Positions 3,655-46,807 of a stretch of 64,000 bases of DNA are shown here, one piece after another (the stretch's first letter is position 1; every line of letters begins with the position of its first letter). A program made the translations under genes and the position numbers. The notes beneath the pieces are model-generated. The model saw only the letters and a list, made by a program, of their open reading frames with translations. It made no database searches and was not told the origin of the DNA. Origin of the DNA: a virus. Lineage: Duplodnaviria > Caudoviricetes. The stretch covers positions 1 through 64,000 of IMG/VR virus record IMGVR_UViG_3300032239_001501, one strand, 5' to 3'.

Positions 3655-5801
3655 ATTATATCATAGACAATATTCAATTTAATAATTATTTCTTGTCCGT
3701 TTAGTGAAAAATTGCTAGTACTTGTTTGTATTGTTATCTGGTTATTAAGTGAATCAATAATAACTCCACTAACACCATTAATTCCTAATAATATACTTTT
3801 AACTGTATCATACCATAAATTATCACTTGGTCCAACATTCAATGTTGTTGCGGTAAAGAATGGTACGCTTATTGAAGTTCCTAATGGATTAACAAGAACT
3901 TGGGCAGTATAAACAGCGGTAATTAAATCACAATTTGTATTACCTGATGTGAGGTCAGCAAAACCTTCATTCATCATTTGAAGTAATCCATATTTAGTTG
4001 GTGATTGTATTTGAAATAATTCCGATCCCATTGTGTAACTCTCATAAGAAACATATGATGTTGCACAATTTATTGAAGTTGTTCTTTTCAATGTACATCC
4101 TGTTGAATCTGTTATAACAACACTATATGTTCCTGCAGTTAATGCTGAAACTTGTATTTGTTGTGGATTACCTGAAACATTATCGGACCATTGATATGTG
4201 AATGGCGGAGTTCCTGACGTTATGAATGCTGTTATAGTTCCACTTGTACCTCCTCCACAAGATGTACTATAAAGTGAATAATCAAGTTGTGGACTTGATT
4301 CAACATATACATTTGCCGTTTGAATACAACCTGTTGCATCATTAACTGTAATAATATGTTGCCCTGAAGCCACATTTGAAAATGTTACCGCAGTTAAGTT
4401 AGTATCTATAATATTGTTTACTCCATCTAAAGAAAAATCAAATGGCTCTGTTCCACCTGTTGTTCTGGTAACAATAATTCTTCCATTTCTTTGATTACAT
4501 GTAGTACCTGTTACATCTGTTGAAATTGTAAATAAATTTTCTGTATATATTGTTTTTTCAACTATATAATTACAGCCAGAAGAATCACTTACAGCAACTG
4601 TATATGTTCCGCTAACAAGATCTGCAAATAATTGTGTTGTTTGATTATTACTAACATTTAATGAATTACCGTCAGGGTATATTAATGTGTACGAATATGG
4701 TGTTACTCCTCCAACAACATTTACAGTTATTTGACCATTTGTGGTAGAGCAACTAGAATTTTGTGCACTAACACTTACAGATGATATACCTTGTGGTGAT
4801 ACTATACTTGTTCCAACCACTATACTACATAAACCAGCATCTGTTACTTGAATTGAATAATCTCCAGAAGATAACCCTGAAATTGTATATTGTTGAGAAT
4901 ACGATATTAAAACATCTCCTGTTGATGCAGAATAATAATATGGTGCAGTTCCTCCTGTTATGGTTAAAGTTAAACTACCATCACTAGAAAAACAAGTAGG
5001 TGGAGTCGTGGTAAACGAACCAAAACCAATTGGATTAACATTATCTACAGTTGCAGAGTTACTTAAATTACACCCATAAACATCCGTTACTTGAACAGAA
5101 TAAACTCCTGCAGTAAGACCTGTAATACTACTAGTGGTAGCACTATTACTCCAAAGATAAGTGAAAGGTCCATTACCTGTTAACCCCGTAACATATATTT
5201 TTCCGATATTATTATATCCACCACAATTTGAATTTGGTACAGAATATAACCCATAACTCATAGGTTGTGATTCTTCAATAATAAAAGTTTCACTTCTTCC
5301 AGTACATCCCCCTAAATCTTCGGCAATCATATAATAAGTTCCTGCCGTTAAACTTCCAAATATTACTGTAGCTTGATTTGTTATTGCTGATTGGCTAAAC
5401 ACATTATCTGAGTGATAAAGATAAAAATTAGTTGATGAATATTGTGATGTTGAACTTCCCGTTACAGATCCGTTATTTTGAGAACATGTAGTACTTTGTA
5501 TCCCTAAAATATTACAACAAACCCCTGATGATATGGGTATATTAATGTAAAAATCATTATTAGTTGGAACTGTACTATCATTAATTCTAACTGAATATGT
5601 ACCTGAATATAGTCCACTTCTACTTGACGGAACCGTAGTTACAACATCAACACCTAAATTTGGTTGGTACCAATCAACAGTATATGGTGAAGTACCTCCG
5701 GTAACAGATACTGTTGCCGCTCCTAATTGAGAATTAGAACAATTTCCTGTTACAGATAAACTGTAATTAAATGATACTGGTGGTAGTGGAGCTTGTGGCA
5801 T
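3642..5801 (-). CDS. SprB-like repeat beta-sandwich protein (putative adhesin or tail appendage)
   Basis: About 7 repeats of C-x(4)-G-x-I-x-V-x-GGTxPY-x-Y...L-x-x-G-x-Y-x-V-x-V-x-D-x-x-GC, the pattern of Bacteroidota SprB/PKD-type repeats. Confidence 0.7.
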   Translation of the reverse strand: MPQAPLPPVSFNYSLSVTGNCSNSQLGAATVSVTGGTSPYTVDWYQPNLGVDVVTTVPSSRSGLYSGTYSVRINDSTVPTNNDFYINIPISSGVCCNILGIQSTTCSQNNGSVTGSSTSQYSSTNFYLYHSDNVFSQSAITNQATVIFGSLTAGTYYMIAEDLGGCTGRSETFIIEESQPMSYGLYSVPNSNCGGYNNIGKIYVTGLTGNGPFTYLWSNSATTSSITGLTAGVYSVQVTDVYGCNLSNSATVDNVNPIGFGSFTTTPPTCFSSDGSLTLTITGGTAPYYYSASTGDVLISYSQQYTISGLSSGDYSIQVTDAGLCSIVVGTSIVSPQGISSVSVSAQNSSCSTTNGQITVNVVGGVTPYSYTLIYPDGNSLNVSNNQTTQLFADLVSGTYTVAVSDSSGCNYIVEKTIYTENLFTISTDVTGTTCNQRNGRIIVTRTTGGTEPFDFSLDGVNNIIDTNLTAVTFSNVASGQHIITVNDATGCIQTANVYVESSPQLDYSLYSTSCGGGTSGTITAFITSGTPPFTYQWSDNVSGNPQQIQVSALTAGTYSVVITDSTGCTLKRTTSINCATSYVSYESYTMGSELFQIQSPTKYGLLQMMNEGFADLTSGNTNCDLITAVYTAQVLVNPLGTSISVPFFTATTLNVGPSDNLWYDTVKSILLGINGVSGVIIDSLNNQITIQTSTSNFSLNGQEIIIKLNIVYDIMCLK

Positions 5802-38871: not shown

Positions 38872-41800
38872 TAATTAAGTTTTAATTTTGAAACATATAC
38901 TGACGGTTTACCGTCATTATTATTCCAACTATTTTTATCTGTATTTGCCAATACTCTACCTAATCCAGTTATCATTGTTGTTTGACTTGCTGTCGGTGAT
39001 GTTGATTTTTCAAAAGTAAACAACCTATCTTTGACTCCAAATGGAGTATAATTAATATAGTCTTTTAATTGACCTTTTTCAAGGCTATCAAAAAATGCTG
39101 TCGTTATTGTATTTTCTTTACTAAAAAGAGGTTTTGCAATTCCTATCCAATAAGCATCAAATTGAGCACTAATATCAGAACTTCCACTACCAATAATATC
39201 CGTATTCTTAATTATATCACCAATTATAGCATTCTTAAAAGTTTGATATCTTTTATCATCTAATATTTCAGCAGATAAAATCATATACATTCTTTTAAAT
39301 GAAAGTACTTGAAAAGTATCATCCTTACTAAATGGTTCAAATACTTTAGACTTTAAATCTTTATCATATGTTGTCCCTTCACTACTTACACCATATAAAG
39401 CATTCCCTGTGTATTGCGAAGATTCATATGTAAATTTGCTTTTCTTTACTATTAAATCATAAAACGAACTAACACTATAACCAATTTTTCTAATATCATT
39501 TTGTATTTCAATAAAAGTGTCCGCAGCTTCAGAAGTTGAATAGACATTTGTAGTTCCACTAATATCGTATATTGTAATATTACCATTTTTTTCTTGTAAC
39601 CCGTCAGTACCTGTATCTGGTCCAGATTTGTATAAAGGTATTACATTAGCCCTTGTCAAATATTGAATATATTTTTGTTGTTGTGTAACAAGATCTTGAT
39701 TTAATTGAGTTATTGCACTTTGATAAGAACTTTTTGTATTTGTTACAAAATTCTTCATATTCATTTTTAGTTGTCTAATAACTTTAGGACTAAACCTTTT
39801 TTCAGTTCCTGACATAAAATTAATAAATCTATCCTGAGTTGCACTATCATCACTTTCTATATCTGCAATATAATCATTAGTAATATTATCAACTATTTTT
39901 TGAATGTTATCAGGTTTTCCTACAATTAAAATTTCTTTTCCTGGTGTTGTATCCACCAAGAAAGTTCCCGACACATAATTTCTACTTGAAGTCCAATTTT
40001 GCAACATAGCATTATTATATTGTTTAACACATTCTTTACTTTTATTAACAAAAGTTTGGAAATACGTTTGTGTTTCTGCAACAAAATTATTCATAAACTT
40101 TTTATAACTAATTGTTCCCGTTGTACCTGAAGTTGATAAAATATCTCCAATAGTTGCCTCGTTTGTTTGTGGATTATTATCTTGTGTTTGATTAAGTGTT
40201 GGGCCTGGCGGTTGGGGTCCTGCATTAATCCAAGCCTTATCAATTACTTTATAACTTAAATCTGTAACATCCGCTCTATCATCATACATTTCAGTATTAG
40301 CATAATAATTAAATGTTAATGCATTTTGTAATTTATCTACAGATTCTTTTAACCCACTACCTCCAACAAAATTAAATGATAATGTCACATTTGCAATCAT
40401 TGGTTGAATACCAATACCTTCAGGATTAATATCCAAATCTTCATATGTTAGTTGTAATCCTATTGGAATAATTTTTGTATTATAAAAATCACCAACTCTT
40501 AAAACTAATACTGGAGGTGCTCCAAACGCAGTGTTAGTTGCATTATTATACTGAAGTTCATTTTTTTGTCCAACAGTTTTAATTGTTGGAATTGTATCAC
40601 CAGGTCTCATACATTGTTGAAGAAATGTTAATCTAGTATTTAACCCTTCTGGCGTCATTGAATGAAATCCTGGTTGAAAAAACTTCAATTTTTCTTTAAG
40701 ATTATCATATACCATTGGAGAATCTTCTTTGATAGCTTCAAAGTAATTACATTCAGAAAGTAATGATCTTAATACTCTTTTAGTAATATTATCTCTTTCA
40801 ACCCATTTCTCTTCAATTTGTTGAACTGTTGTTGTTACTGGTGTAACTGTTCCTACGATTACATTTGAAAGTTGTGGTTGTGGTTGTTGTTGTACAGGTT
40901 GAGCATTTTGTTGTACAGGTGTTTGAGTTAATGTTGATTTTATATTAGAAATATATGCTCTTCTACAGGCCATTGCTGTTGTAGAATAAATTTTATTTGT
41001 TTGTGATAAAGTATCTCCTCCTTTAGCATTTGCATCATTATCAGTACAACTTATTGTTGTACCTTTTATAAATTTTTTAGTTTGGTCATCATATTGTAAA
41101 ACACTCGCTTCTTCACCAAAAGCAGTACCTGATGTAACTATTAATTTATTATTATAATATTGTGCAGTATCCGGATTAGTTTTAAAATATTGAATAGCAG
41201 AGTAAATTCTTCTTGTCGCTAATTGTTTATTATATGAACTACTCGCAGGTGCAGAACAACTCGCTTCAATTATTATTGTTATATTTCCTTCACCACTTTT
41301 ATTTTGTTCAATTTGATTTTTAATTAATGTACATAAATTTTTAATTTCAGTATAATTAGGTGTAACTACACTATTAAAAAATGATTGGGTTACTGACGCA
41401 GTGGTTTGTTTAGTATAAGACCCACTTAAAACATTACTACTATACGTATCATATTCAGAATTATAATTTGCAACTAATTCTTGTGTTTTTGGTATATCAT
41501 TATCAAAATAAAATCCAAAATTATCAAAATTTTCAAACGGATTTGTTGAATTATTTGGTGCAACTGGTTGAGTTTGTGGATCTGACTTTACTCCTGTTTG
41601 TATTGTTTTAACTGCATAAGTCAATTGTTCCTTAGTCATCTCTTTTGATGAAATCATTTGTTGAAGTTCATACAAATCATTAGGATTAATTGTCACATAT
41701 TTTTTAGCTAATTCATATAAATCATATGTTCTACATCCAGCAAAAAATGAATCAATAATACTATCAATTCTTGGTCTGTTTGTTTCGTTTTTTAAAACTT

Positions 41801-43947: not shown

Positions 43948-45798
43948 TTATTTTGTCTTTTCTAATTCTTTGTTTTTTTGTTGGACATATGAGTATATCA
44001 TTTTTTTAAAATTTTCACTCTTAAGCAATTGTTCAAGATATTGAGTGCTAACTCCAGATGGTGCGTCTATTTTAACTGTAAATGTAACATCATCTTTAGA
44101 TGTTCTATTTGTTTCATTTACAGCAGATGTTAATGTTTGATTTGGATTTGATGCTTTATCTAATGATTCTGTTCCGTATAAACTAAGATTAGTTGATTTC
44201 GCATTTGCTGCGTTTGCAGTTGCGGCAGTAACACCTGATTTAGGTTTTTCTGATTTACCCTCTACAATATTTTTTAATTCATCCATTGCCGCCATAGACA
44301 TTTTACCAATTTCACCACTTTTATATCCTAAATTTTTGTCTTTTAAACTATTATAAATTTGTTTAGTTACCTGTTCTAAAGTTGCCGTAACATCTTTTCC
44401 TTGATCTTTAAACTTAGTACCCAATTCTGCAAAAACTTCTCCATATGATTTTTTACCTTCATATAGTTCTGATGCGGCATCTCTAATCGCGTCCGAAGCT
44501 TTTTCAAAAAATTGTTTATTGAAAATTTCAGATTTACCTAACTTATCAGATGCAATTCCAGTTGGAATTGTAATTGTTTTCCTTAAAGACTCCATATTAT
44601 CTTTAACAAAAGAAGTTGAAACTGCACCTCTAACAACCGCTTCTTTAATTGCTGCAACATCATTCGCCACAAGATCACTAGTTTTTAGTGATGCCCTTGC
44701 AATGTCTTCCATTGATTTTGGAGATTCTTTTTGTTCTTTAATTAACTTATCAAACTCCTCTTGTGTTACTTCACTTAATTTTTTTGTTGCATCCATTCCT
44801 GATGCATCTCTTATTTTAACAACATATTCTCCAGAAGCATCCATTTCAGACAAATTAGATAAAAATTGTTTGTCTGATTCATCTTTAAATTTAAGACTTG
44901 GACTAATTTGTGATAATCTTTTATCTGTTTCGGCAGCAGCTAATCCCATTTTGGTCAATGTACCTGCAGCTAAACCAGATTCTTTTTCCATCTCTTTCAA
45001 AGTAAGAATACCTTGAGGATTAATTTTAAATGTTTTTGATTTATCATCAAAATATGTAAATTGTTTTGCCACATTAGCCAAACTATCTTGTAAAGCTCCT
45101 GGATCATTAATTGACGCATTCATTAAAGCAAATGGGTCTGCAAGAGCCCCTGCAGATACTCCAAGTCTTTGAAAAGCCGACGCCATGTTAATTGCCGCCT
45201 CAGGATTCATCATTTTTTCTGCAAAACCAAGAGCAAAACTCATATCCACTCTAAGCATAGAAGCTCTTGCAGCCATTTTAGTCATTCCTTGAACTCCACC
45301 TTCAAAATTAAATTGATTAAGTTGTGATGCATTCTCAGTTACTTGTTTCATCACTGCTTTGGTATTCAATCCCAAGTCGCTTACAGTTGAAACTGATTTC
45401 TCTAATTCACCACCAATAACTCCAAATTGAATACCAACATCCGTAAATTTAGTAACAATATCTGAAACATCACCCCCTAAAACTTGAGTTGTAGCATATA
45501 ATTTGGCAACACTATCTGCAGAAGCTAATGTTTGTTTTTTTGTTGCATCAGCAATCGCAACCATTGCATCAGTAGTATCTTTAAAATCAGCCCCAAGTCT
45601 TCTCATTCTTGGTGCCGCTTCACTAACCGCAGTCATCATTTCACCAACCCTTGCTCGTGAAGAAGCAAATGCTCCTGTCATTTCATTGGCAGCTTTAGTC
45701 ATTTCTTGAGCTGATTTAATAAACTCCTTAGCACTAAAATTAGCAGCTTCCGCCATTTTTTCACTAAATCCTTCTGTTGTTGATTTGTCGTCAGCCAT
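43948..45798 (-). CDS. Tail tape measure protein
   Basis: 616-aa Ala/Lys/Met-rich helical protein directly downstream of the tube and chaperone genes. Confidence 0.75.
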   Translation of the reverse strand: MADDKSTTEGFSEKMAEAANFSAKEFIKSAQEMTKAANEMTGAFASSRARVGEMMTAVSEAAPRMRRLGADFKDTTDAMVAIADATKKQTLASADSVAKLYATTQVLGGDVSDIVTKFTDVGIQFGVIGGELEKSVSTVSDLGLNTKAVMKQVTENASQLNQFNFEGGVQGMTKMAARASMLRVDMSFALGFAEKMMNPEAAINMASAFQRLGVSAGALADPFALMNASINDPGALQDSLANVAKQFTYFDDKSKTFKINPQGILTLKEMEKESGLAAGTLTKMGLAAAETDKRLSQISPSLKFKDESDKQFLSNLSEMDASGEYVVKIRDASGMDATKKLSEVTQEEFDKLIKEQKESPKSMEDIARASLKTSDLVANDVAAIKEAVVRGAVSTSFVKDNMESLRKTITIPTGIASDKLGKSEIFNKQFFEKASDAIRDAASELYEGKKSYGEVFAELGTKFKDQGKDVTATLEQVTKQIYNSLKDKNLGYKSGEIGKMSMAAMDELKNIVEGKSEKPKSGVTAATANAANAKSTNLSLYGTESLDKASNPNQTLTSAVNETNRTSKDDVTFTVKIDAPSGVSTQYLEQLLKSENFKKMIYSYVQQKNKELEKTK

Positions 45799-45811
45799 TG
45801 AAATGTTTTAT

Positions 45812-45819
45812 TATAAATA
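45812..45819 (-). promoter_or_regulatory. TATTTATA motif (putative late promoter)
   Basis: cTATTTATAataaaacatt, 13 nt upstream of ATG 45798. Confidence 0.6.
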
Positions 45820-45820
45820 G

Positions 45821-45851
45821 AAGAAGGACTAATTTTTTTTTAGTCCTTCTT
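45821..45851 (-). terminator. 12-bp hairpin at the end of the chaperone extension frame
   Basis: aagaaggactaa / ttagtccttctt inverted repeat overlapping the TAA at 45840-45842; weak U-tract. Confidence 0.55.
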
Positions 45852-45992
45852 GTTATTTTCAACCCATTTGTCTAATAGATATTTTCTTACAAATATGGGC
45901 ATTCGTTCAAAATCTTGCCATGTAATCTTGAGTAGTGTATTCAAATAAAAAAACTCATCAAGTTGTCCTTTTCTATAATCAGAAGAAAGGAC
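45840..45992 (-). CDS. +1-frame extension of the tail assembly chaperone (50 aa), probably reached by programmed frameshift
   Basis: Open frame VLSSDYRKGQLDEFFYLNTLLKITWQDFERMPIFVRKYLLDKWVENNKKD* fills the gap before the tape measure gene and has no ATG near its 5' end. Confidence 0.7.
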   Translation of the reverse strand, partial: VLSSDYRKGQLDEFFYLNTLLKITWQDFERMPIFVRKYLLDKWVENNKKD

Positions 45993-46722
45993 GAAAAAAC
46001 TCCACCCCAAAACCGACGTTAACTGTCAGTCTATCTCCTGATGGGGTTGTTACTATTCGGTTCATGTCTAATCTTGGTTCATTTTCATCCATAAAATTTC
46101 TGATGAATTTTGAATCCATAATTGGCATTTGTTCAATAAATTTAGATATTTCTCCTCTTCCAGTATTTCCATCAACTTCAACAATTTGTTTTTCAAGTCT
46201 CCAAGTTACTTTAGGTACTGTTCTTCCTTGTGGATATAATTCACTCATTTTAGATATATTCATAACCTCACCATAAGTCATAGGTCTTAACTTAACAACA
46301 CTATTTGATTTTGGAAGAGTTACCAAGAATGTACCATCTTCTAACGGTTCTTGACCTTTAACAACATTAAGTTCATCTAAAACAACTGTTGTTTGAAATG
46401 GTTTTTTTGTTGCTGGATCAGTAACGTTAATTGTTAATTCGGGTCCAAAAGAAGTATTTCTTAAGAAGATTAGAATTGCTTCAACATCTCCTTCCAATAA
46501 ATCTTCAACTTTAATATCGGGTTCATATAACTTACCTTTAATTAAATTAGTAGTTACATCGTCTCCTCCTGCCATTAAAATATTTTCATCAGATGCGGTC
46601 AAATAACCAATCTTAACTGATTTCTTTTTGTTTTTGTAAAAAATTCCTTGTGATGGCAATGGAACCACATCATGAGGAAGTGTGAAATTCTGTTGTGCGT
46701 AATTTTGTGTTTGATTGTCCAT
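45979..46722 (-). CDS. Tail / baseplate-hub assembly chaperone (T4 gp26-like)
   Basis: VPLPSQG, YLTASDENIL, DVEAILIFLRNTSFG, ends GVEFFRPFF; lies between the tube and tape measure genes. Confidence 0.75.
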   Translation of the reverse strand: MDNQTQNYAQQNFTLPHDVVPLPSQGIFYKNKKKSVKIGYLTASDENILMAGGDDVTTNLIKGKLYEPDIKVEDLLEGDVEAILIFLRNTSFGPELTINVTDPATKKPFQTTVVLDELNVVKGQEPLEDGTFLVTLPKSNSVVKLRPMTYGEVMNISKMSELYPQGRTVPKVTWRLEKQIVEVDGNTGRGEISKFIEQMPIMDSKFIRNFMDENEPRLDMNRIVTTPSGDRLTVNVGFGVEFFRPFF

Positions 46723-46724
46723 AT

Positions 46725-46761
46725 AAAAAAAATAACCGTAAAGTTTATGCCTTTACGGTTA
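46725..46761 (-). terminator. Intrinsic terminator after the tail tube gene
   Basis: taaccgtaaag-7nt-ctttacggtta hairpin followed by a U-tract ending just before ATG 46722. Confidence 0.8.
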
Positions 46762-46807
46762 AATATAATTTAAATTTGTTTTTTATAAATATTAAAATAT
46801 TAAAATA

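Follow-up and report, generated by a model that had tools for sequence, protein, structure and literature searches.

The 64,000-nt window analyzed here (positions 1 to 64,000 of the IMG/VR virus record IMGVR_UViG_3300032239_001501, from a tailed phage of the Caudoviricetes) carries on its minus strand a 247-codon gene of the PF12322 family, located between the genes for the tail tube and a tape-measure-like protein. The comparative sequence record makes it very probable that this one gene gives rise to a short and a long form of a tail assembly chaperone by means of a +1 ribosomal slip at the sequence UUU_UUU_CGU. In bacteria and their viruses, programmed +1 frameshifts are uncommon, and a deep comparative record exists for few of them. 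The source record comprises 165.5 kb and was estimated to be 55% complete, indicating a jumbo phage; related DNA comes mostly from lake-water metagenomes.

According to the proposed mechanism, most ribosomes would stop at the frame-0 TGA (45981-45979) and release the 247-aa short form, and a minority would pause with tRNA-Phe on UUU in the P site and the rare CGU codon in an empty A site. The tRNA-Phe would then slip one base forward, either from UUU, a wobble pairing, to the cognate UUC or, on the first Phe codon, from UUU to UUU. Of these two codons, UUC is the better pairing partner for tRNA-Phe (anticodon GAA). Decoding would resume at GUC in the +1 frame and yield a 293-aa product (...GVEFF-VLSSDYRK...) ending in a 50-residue tail predicted to form three helices. 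By analogy with the G/GT pair of lambda, the shared core might hold the tape measure or the hub, and the tail might recruit another tail component.

The first-pass annotation of this locus, made from the DNA letters alone, had proposed the shift on the basis of the frame layout, and this layout holds almost throughout. The 247-codon ORF ends in GAG (46002-46000) TTT TTT CGT CCT TTC TTC TGA, the +1 frame continues without a stop for 50 codons from the GTC at 45992 to the TAA at 45842-45840, and the -1 frame closes after 17 codons. A +1-frame TGA lies upstream as described, albeit 12 codons before the GTC and not approximately 10. The narrow shift window deduced from it is narrower still in two relatives (L002 and L021), in which a +1-frame TAG located 4 codons before the GTC shrinks it to the last 8 frame-0 codons, leaving only GAA TTT TTT CGT CCT TTC TTC TGA. 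Since the G+C content of the window is 30.6%, stops are frequent in unused frames, and the chance of an alternative frame staying open for approximately 62 codons at this composition was estimated from base composition at approximately 0.006. Among the window's 20,019 codons, in-frame TTTTTTC occurs only twice; at the second occurrence, at 40682, the +1 frame is shut after 6 codons. The supposed A-site codon is rare, with CGT used 2.4 times per 1000 of these codons (CGC 0.1) as opposed to 25 for AGA. Two products of 247 and 293 aa, as originally put forward, would be expected from this layout and its conservation.

This conservation was followed in a close set of 80 IMG/VR loci (69-94% protein identity) and in 160 more loci retrieved by two scans with alignments of the distant "FFWP" and "FLNIA" subfamilies; dereplication gave 166 distinct loci in three subfamilies (approximately 35-94% identity). 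All 80 close loci read GAN TTT TTT CGY CCT TTC TT(C/T) followed by a stop, and every complete locus among them has a +1 ORF of 48-50 codons encoding a conserved peptide. Across the dereplicated set, the overlap of the two frames contains an in-frame TTT with C or T as the next base in 165 of the 166 loci, and a +1 extension runs 39-88 codons past the frame-0 stop in 165 of the 166, the exception being L202, with the -1 frame mostly short (1-37 codons). The site most often reads TTT TTT CGN (109 loci, which agrees with UUU_UUU_CGU as the shift site), followed by TTT TTT TGG (32 loci), and most others read NNN TTT CTN. Orthologs with the second ORF in varying frames had been named as an observation that would speak against a shift; the constant +1 offset favors it. 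The canonical -1 shift on an X_XXY_YYZ heptamer does not describe this set, and a U_UUU_UUU heptamer with a -1 extension occurs only in the distant phage XacN1 (see below). The FFWP and FLNIA subfamilies (P0138-P0269; L087-L196) have 130-200 additional N-terminal residues ahead of the PF12322 core. Contigs from lake and freshwater metatranscriptomes of four studies cover window positions 45600-46800 at 85-99% identity, from which it follows that relatives are present in these RNA libraries, through transcription or DNA carry-over.

Purifying selection acts on the +1 frame downstream of the site. The per-position entropy passes from frame-0 third positions upstream of the T run to +1-frame third positions downstream of it, and the 18 bases at the site (positions 0-17 from the first T) are invariant save for the Y of CGY, as expected for coding in both frames. 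Correspondingly, pN/pS is 0.31 in frame 0 for the upstream part, and for the extension it is 0.20 in the +1 frame as opposed to 2.17 and 0.62 in the other two frames. The extension alignment (A7) shows the conserved motif ..DEF.YL....(S/T)(Y/W).DF..MP.F.RKYL...

Long forms also occur as single uninterrupted proteins. When the conceptual 293-aa product (P0123) was searched against 1.84 billion representative proteins, 1377 relatives were returned, most of whose alignments stop at query residue 243-245; these short relatives end 4-7 residues past a conserved FF, with FFRPFF, FFWPDL, FFYP.. or F(I/V)FLNIA. Five distantly related proteins of 304-344 aa (P0203, P0216, P0225, P0270 and P0273) align through residues 285-291 and thus carry the extension in frame. 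An A7 HMM built exclusively from +1-frame translations matches the in-frame tails of these five natural long forms (E 5e-8 to 5e-13) and does not match the short form. The genes for P0203 and P0273 each lie directly downstream of a second, shorter PF12322 gene, ending in ..LFWPNAKI or ..LFYPDAEE, which is the same type of ending as that of the frame-0 short forms; given a short paralog beside the long one, these lineages encode both forms as tandem paralogs. Of the indirect evidence for a need of both forms, this arrangement is the strongest, and selection on both frames within the overlap points the same way. Among relatives sharing 5-residue words with the extension in a collection of 5.8 billion proteins, no in-frame fusions were found.

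A -2 ribosomal slip on the U6 run, which the first-pass annotation had offered as an alternative, is improbable. Here, the tRNA-Phe on the second UUU would move back two bases, and UUC and GUC would be read to give an EFFFV... product. The U6 run would indeed permit perfect re-pairing, and a T6 or T7 run is present in approximately 85% of the dereplicated loci. However, UUU_C is kept without a U run in L203 (TTC TTT CGC) and in loci reading AGC, ACC or AAA TTT CTN, that of Flavobacterium phage immuto among them, and approximately 25 loci with only NNN TTT CTN, as well as L203, retain the +1-frame extension. At these sites, a -2 slip would result in mismatched re-pairing, whereas a +1 slip yields UUC, and because TTC TTT CGC and AGC TTT CTT permit only a +1 shift, the +1 direction is favored. 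Additionally, a search for 3' structure of the type usual for -2 or -1 shifts gave none.

Transcriptional slippage, in which the polymerase would drop one U or add two in the U6 run so that a minority mRNA encodes the fusion, has a similarly low probability. It would exploit the homopolymer run at the site, and would yield the same protein as a +1 shift. Against it, relatives with only T3-T4 at the site keep the arrangement, and for these variants slippage is unlikely; moreover, contigs from four RNA libraries of four studies cross the slip site without an indel, although contigs mask minority species. Useful transcriptional slippage usually needs runs of 7-9 or more, for which six U are too short.

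It is even less probable that the +1 ORF is a separate small gene that starts at the in-frame TTG at 46010-46008 or at an internal codon and produces a free peptide of approximately 50-56 aa. An ATG, GTG or TTG is found somewhere in the overlap in 133 of 164 loci, and small ORFs have been called at this place in GenBank (SP15_046 and immuto35A_232). Yet the second ORF has no conserved start of its own, such a start having been named in the first-pass annotation as evidence against the shift: the TTG is TCG in six close relatives (L045, L047, L048, L050, L067 and L071) and is cut off by a TAG two codons later in L002 and L021, and the +1 frame of the overlap contains no ATG, GTG or TTG in 31 of the 164 loci. 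The conserved peptide, moreover, starts at the shift site, ahead of any start codon located downstream, the PF12322 core and a homologous tail form one polypeptide in each of the five natural long forms, and every related contig examined retains the +1 offset.

That one true 293-codon ORF was broken by faulty sequencing or assembly, or by a frameshift mutation of recent date, is effectively refuted, homopolymers being error-prone notwithstanding, since approximately 240 IMG/VR contigs, down to approximately 35% protein identity, carry the same offset (which disposes of the concern over the T6 run raised in the first-pass annotation), the frame-0 tail RPFF and its stop are themselves conserved and dual-coded, and in the L066 group the frame-0 TGA is replaced by GGA, a change that is silent when read in +1 (TCT to TCG) and merely shifts the end of frame 0 by two codons.

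Regarding the sequences around the site, UUU_Ynn was described as a sequence on which +1 shifts occur with particular ease in bacteria (PMC5009743). A rare Gly codon, GGG, together with the next G (GGGG, window 46003-46011, minus strand), sits 5 nt before the T run; this GGGG is invariant at a synonymous position in the closest subfamily and also occurs in immuto. It may stimulate the shift in particular lineages, or pair in a small stem with the CCU located 3' of the site. A small GUCCUU/AAGGAC stem was considered as a stimulator and set aside, as it is not kept in relatives. Shine-Dalgarno sequences are lacking in the genes of this phage, and no tRNA genes were found in the window.

Several points weigh against the proposed +1 ribosomal slip or limit what can be said of it. 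A conserved 3' stimulatory structure was not found, either with RNAalifold across 16 relatives or in the single-sequence fold (z +0.5). The upstream GGGG/GGAG is missing from the FFWP and FLNIA subfamilies and from Bacillus phage SP-15, and a Shine-Dalgarno-like element of this kind was therefore rejected as a general stimulator. In the part of the FLNIA subfamily reading GTT TTC CTC, the nearest UUU_C lies approximately 10 codons upstream of the frame-0 stop, and any exact shift site assigned there is tentative. A slip on the first or the second UUU, or a one-base deletion in the mRNA, would lead to the same protein, such that the product cannot prove the mechanism, and the RNA evidence consists of contigs, which hide minority transcripts missing a U. 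Production of the long form is itself deduced from sequence, and we likewise infer the ribosomal nature of the shift, its +1 direction and efficiency, and the binding partners. Finally, the tape-measure assignment of the 616-aa protein encoded downstream rests on its position and on language-model neighbors only, and the scores of the predicted fold against PDB entries are too low for certainty about a shared fold (see below for both).

The 247-aa frame-0 protein matches PF12322 (T4_baseplate) over residues 31-214 with 33.9 bits (E 3.3e-8), above the gathering cut-off of 24.5 bits, and phrog_150 ("baseplate hub") with an E of 2e-13; PF12322 is matched by 43 of 45 aligned homologs (best E 1.8e-16). 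In terms of sequence, it is a hub chaperone of the T4 gp26/gp51 family and not a homolog of lambda gpG, and it would serve tail or hub assembly in a jumbo phage with a contractile tail. The minus-strand genes follow the order sheath, a 275-aa protein of unknown function, tube, chaperone ORF, extension, a 616-aa protein and a 1675-aa protein (Table 1), and the chaperone thus occupies the slot before a tape-measure-like gene that had been assigned to it from the outset. The tube gene lies directly upstream of the chaperone gene in 116 related loci, with 64-98% identity. This conservation of the tube protein is much higher than that of the adjacent chaperone (approximately 35-94%) in the same loci (L001-L246). 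The 616-aa protein has no match among Pfam, PHROG or NCBIfam HMMs and no tblastn match in phages. Its feature neighbors in the ESM Atlas are mostly PF10145 (PhageMin_Tail, 19 of 30) and PF20155 (TMP_3, 9 of 30), with scores of approximately 0.90-0.91, and the cultured relatives SP-15, LIS04 and immuto show the same gene order, with an annotated tape measure protein in the corresponding slot. The hairpin at the end of the extension is kept in 14-16 of 16 relatives and is followed downstream by TATTTAT and then by the tape-measure-like gene; it may represent a terminator, an attenuator or a promoter-in-hairpin switch.

Table 1. Features of the chaperone locus and of the corresponding loci of cultured relatives (window coordinates except for the loci of SP-15, LIS04 and immuto).
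Feature	Position	Strand	Remarks
Frame-0 ORF, 247 aa, predicted short chaperone form	45979..46722	-	PF12322 (T4 gp26/gp51 family), phrog_150
Putative shift site UUU_UUU_CGU	45991..45999	-	T6 at 45999-45994; rare Arg codon CGT at 45993-45991
Overlap, both frames open	45979..46025	-	From +1-frame TGA (46028-46026) to frame-0 TGA (45981-45979)
+1-frame extension, 50 codons and TAA	45840..45992	-	Three predicted helices; selection on the +1 frame
Hairpin with 12-bp perfect core stem, over the stop codon of the extension	45815..45858	-	dG -15.9 kcal/mol, z -5.6
Tail sheath protein, 1066 aa	48274..51474	-	phrog_23 at 2.9e-54; PF17482
Tail tube protein, 162 aa	46808..47296	-	phrog_4542 at 1.5e-22; directly upstream of the chaperone ORF
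Tape-measure-like protein, 616 aa, presumed chaperone client	43948..45798	-	Position; ESM Atlas neighbors
+1 extension after "baseplate hub" gene	L084 (SP-15) 4536-4859; L081 (LIS04) 4641-4949; L082 (immuto) 4665-4970		

At the structural level, an AlphaFold2 model based on an alignment of 45 sequences (pLDDT 90.3, pTM 0.79) places the helices of the extension at residues 247-264, 268-273 and 276-290. In BFVD, the model has 62 matches at E<=1e-3, from many myophage groups and in many cases annotated as baseplate hub protein or hub assembly chaperone. Against the PDB, Foldseek gave no match at E<=1e-3, the sole notable probability being that of the HK97 tail assembly chaperone 2ob9 (0.8), and a profile search of PDB sequences gave no match. 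The three best non-helical PDB matches obtained with VIA-align are weak, and all of them are phage chaperone-like proteins: 3fgx_B (Z 6.9, rmsd 5.3, 86 aligned, model residues 8-101), 3klu_A (YqbN; Z 5.8, rmsd 3.5, 83 aligned, model residues 128-216) and 2ob9_B (Z 5.1, rmsd 4.6, 98 aligned). The model thereby hints at two chaperone-like domains in tandem. Prediction of a complex between the tube protein and the extension scored 0.00, which is no evidence either way.

The +1 arrangement is also found in cultured phages. The site reads GAA TTT TTT CAC in SP-15, GAG TTT TTT AGT in LIS04 and AGC TTT CTT TGG in immuto, and in all three phages a +1 extension of 75-85 codons reaches up to the tape measure gene. 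Searched over the whole genomes of these phages, the A7 profile has a single match, namely the extension ORF (E approximately 1e-4). Their GenBank records annotate no frameshift, and SP15_046 and immuto35A_232 are fragments of the extension. A different solution may be used by Xanthomonas phage XacN1 (L083, AP018399.1, about 4755-4998), whose gp26-like ORF317 contains GCT TTT TTT ATT, and with it the heptamer U_UUU_UUU. In this phage the -1 frame is open for approximately 80 codons up to the next gene, and ORF316 is a fragment of that extension, which makes XacN1 a candidate for an unannotated -1 version of the short/long pair as far as its sequence goes. The A7 HMM has no match in the whole XacN1 genome, and the XacN1 -1 peptide alone is not significant.

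Among known systems, the closest likeness is to gpG/gpGT of lambda (Levin, Hendrix and Casjens, 1993; Xu, Hendrix and Duda, 2004; see also E/E+E' of P2). In both cases, an overlapping ORF pair lies between the tube and the tape-measure(-like) genes, the second ORF lacks its own start, the N-terminal body would be common to an abundant short form and a form extended at the C terminus, and the arrangement, with a conserved shift-prone sequence in the overlap, is kept despite sequence divergence. In contrast to lambda, the window phage would shift by +1 and not by -1, at UUU_UUU_CGY and not at G_GGA_AAG or another X_XXY_YYZ heptamer; the extension is only 40-90 aa long, and the protein belongs to PF12322, with no sequence similarity to gpG and a weak likeness to the fold of the HK97 chaperone (Z 5.1). 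What is new relative to lambda G/GT is therefore the different protein family, the +1 direction and the UUU_Y site. The distribution of this form is wide.

The site itself resembles those of PA-X of influenza A (UCC_UUU_CGU), of the amalgaviruses and of YopN-TyeA of Yersinia (PMC5009743), in which a P-site UUU is likewise followed by C. As in PA-X-type shifts, tRNA-Phe would re-pair on UUC, and the A-site CGU is seldom used in the expressing system. Here the E site holds UUU, whereas in PA-X it holds UCC, which aids efficiency; furthermore, the present case concerns a bacterial system and a phage structural-assembly gene, and it is known from sequence alone. It also differs from prfB-type shifts, which have a stop codon in the A site and an internal Shine-Dalgarno sequence 3 nt upstream, in that the A site would hold the sense codon CGU and the GGAG/GGGG located upstream in the window is replaced in other subfamilies. 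Phage 0305phi8-36 makes short and long forms from adjacent paralogous genes, without a frameshift (PMC2147016), as do the loci L247 and L249 of the present family; its chaperones belong to another protein family, and the window phage has the frameshift form.

A further comparison is with T4, whose gp26 and gp51 were described as hub assembly chaperones (Leiman et al., 2010, PMC3004832). T4 gp26 (208 aa) and gp51 (249 aa) match PF12322 with E of 9e-64 and 4e-52, as compared to 3e-8 for the window protein, and on the basis of sequence their paralogy is firmly supported. On the 282 positions of phrog_150, gp26 covers 14-235 and gp51 13-280, and the window short form covers 10-232, P0123 10-251 and P0203 9-270. 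Thus, gp26 ends where the short form does, and gp51 runs on like the long forms. With hhalign, an alignment of 12 members of the gp51 family (A9) places the gp51 tail (residues 218-249) on the extension alignment A7 with an E of 0.0041, the common pattern being ..K..Y....(I/V)(M/L).M.P.ER...L..E; the family alignment was required, as comparing A3 or A7 with the T4 gp51 sequence on its own was uninformative. The A7 HMM has no match in the whole T4 genome, in which gp51 alone is not significant, and phrog_634, which represents the C-terminal half of gp51, has no match in the genome of the window phage. Because the extension HMM and phrog_634 fail to cross-detect, homology of the gp51 tail with the extension is only moderately supported at the sequence level. 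The likeness of the extension to gp51, suggested in the first-pass annotation, accordingly stands insofar as gp51 is a PF12322 paralog with a C-terminal tail that aligns with the extension at the family level, and falls short where A7 is compared with gp51 alone.

Since gp26, without a tail, and gp51, with one, both belong to PF12322, T4 probably uses two genes for the short/long pair. It differs from the window phage in that genes 26 and 51 are divergently transcribed, do not overlap, have no slip site and are not beside the tube gene; the 3' end of gene 26 reads GAG TTC TTT GAG TTA CTA TAA. In the T4 locus (L085, 3803-5229), gene 26 has an annotated internal start (26'), and its stop shares one base with the gene 25 start codon (TAATG). 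The GenBank record of Acinetobacter phage Berthold already names its gp51 homolog "tape measure protein assembly chaperone". In the literature available as full text, with closed-access papers outside reach, no description of a frameshift in gp26-family genes was found, and a 2016 review describes the G-T frameshift as conserved among long-tailed phages "except T4" (PMC5009743).

Collectively, we consider it somewhat probable that PF12322 constitutes the G/GT-equivalent pair of T4-type and jumbo contractile-tailed phages, usually expressed by a +1 frameshift on UUU_Y, with at least three other solutions: the -1 shift of XacN1, tandem paralogs, and genes 26 and 51 of T4. The link from the PF12322 frameshift genes to T4 gp26/gp51 is plausible. 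If true, PF12322 would rank among the largest natural collections of programmed +1 frameshifts in bacterial systems, T4 would no longer be an exception to the tail-chaperone frameshift rule, and gp51, so far a hub assembly catalyst of unknown function, would gain a role. A frameshift conserved across several hundred contigs of uncultured phages, as well as in cultured Bacillus, Listeria and Flavobacterium phages, would offer a natural data set on the UUU_Y site for the whole family, in which some variants distinguish +1 from -2 shifts. It would also correct gene calls, as one protein per phage is absent from annotations and its pieces are filed as hypothetical proteins, and would tie T4 gp26/gp51 to the short/long chaperone scheme that is general in long-tailed phages.

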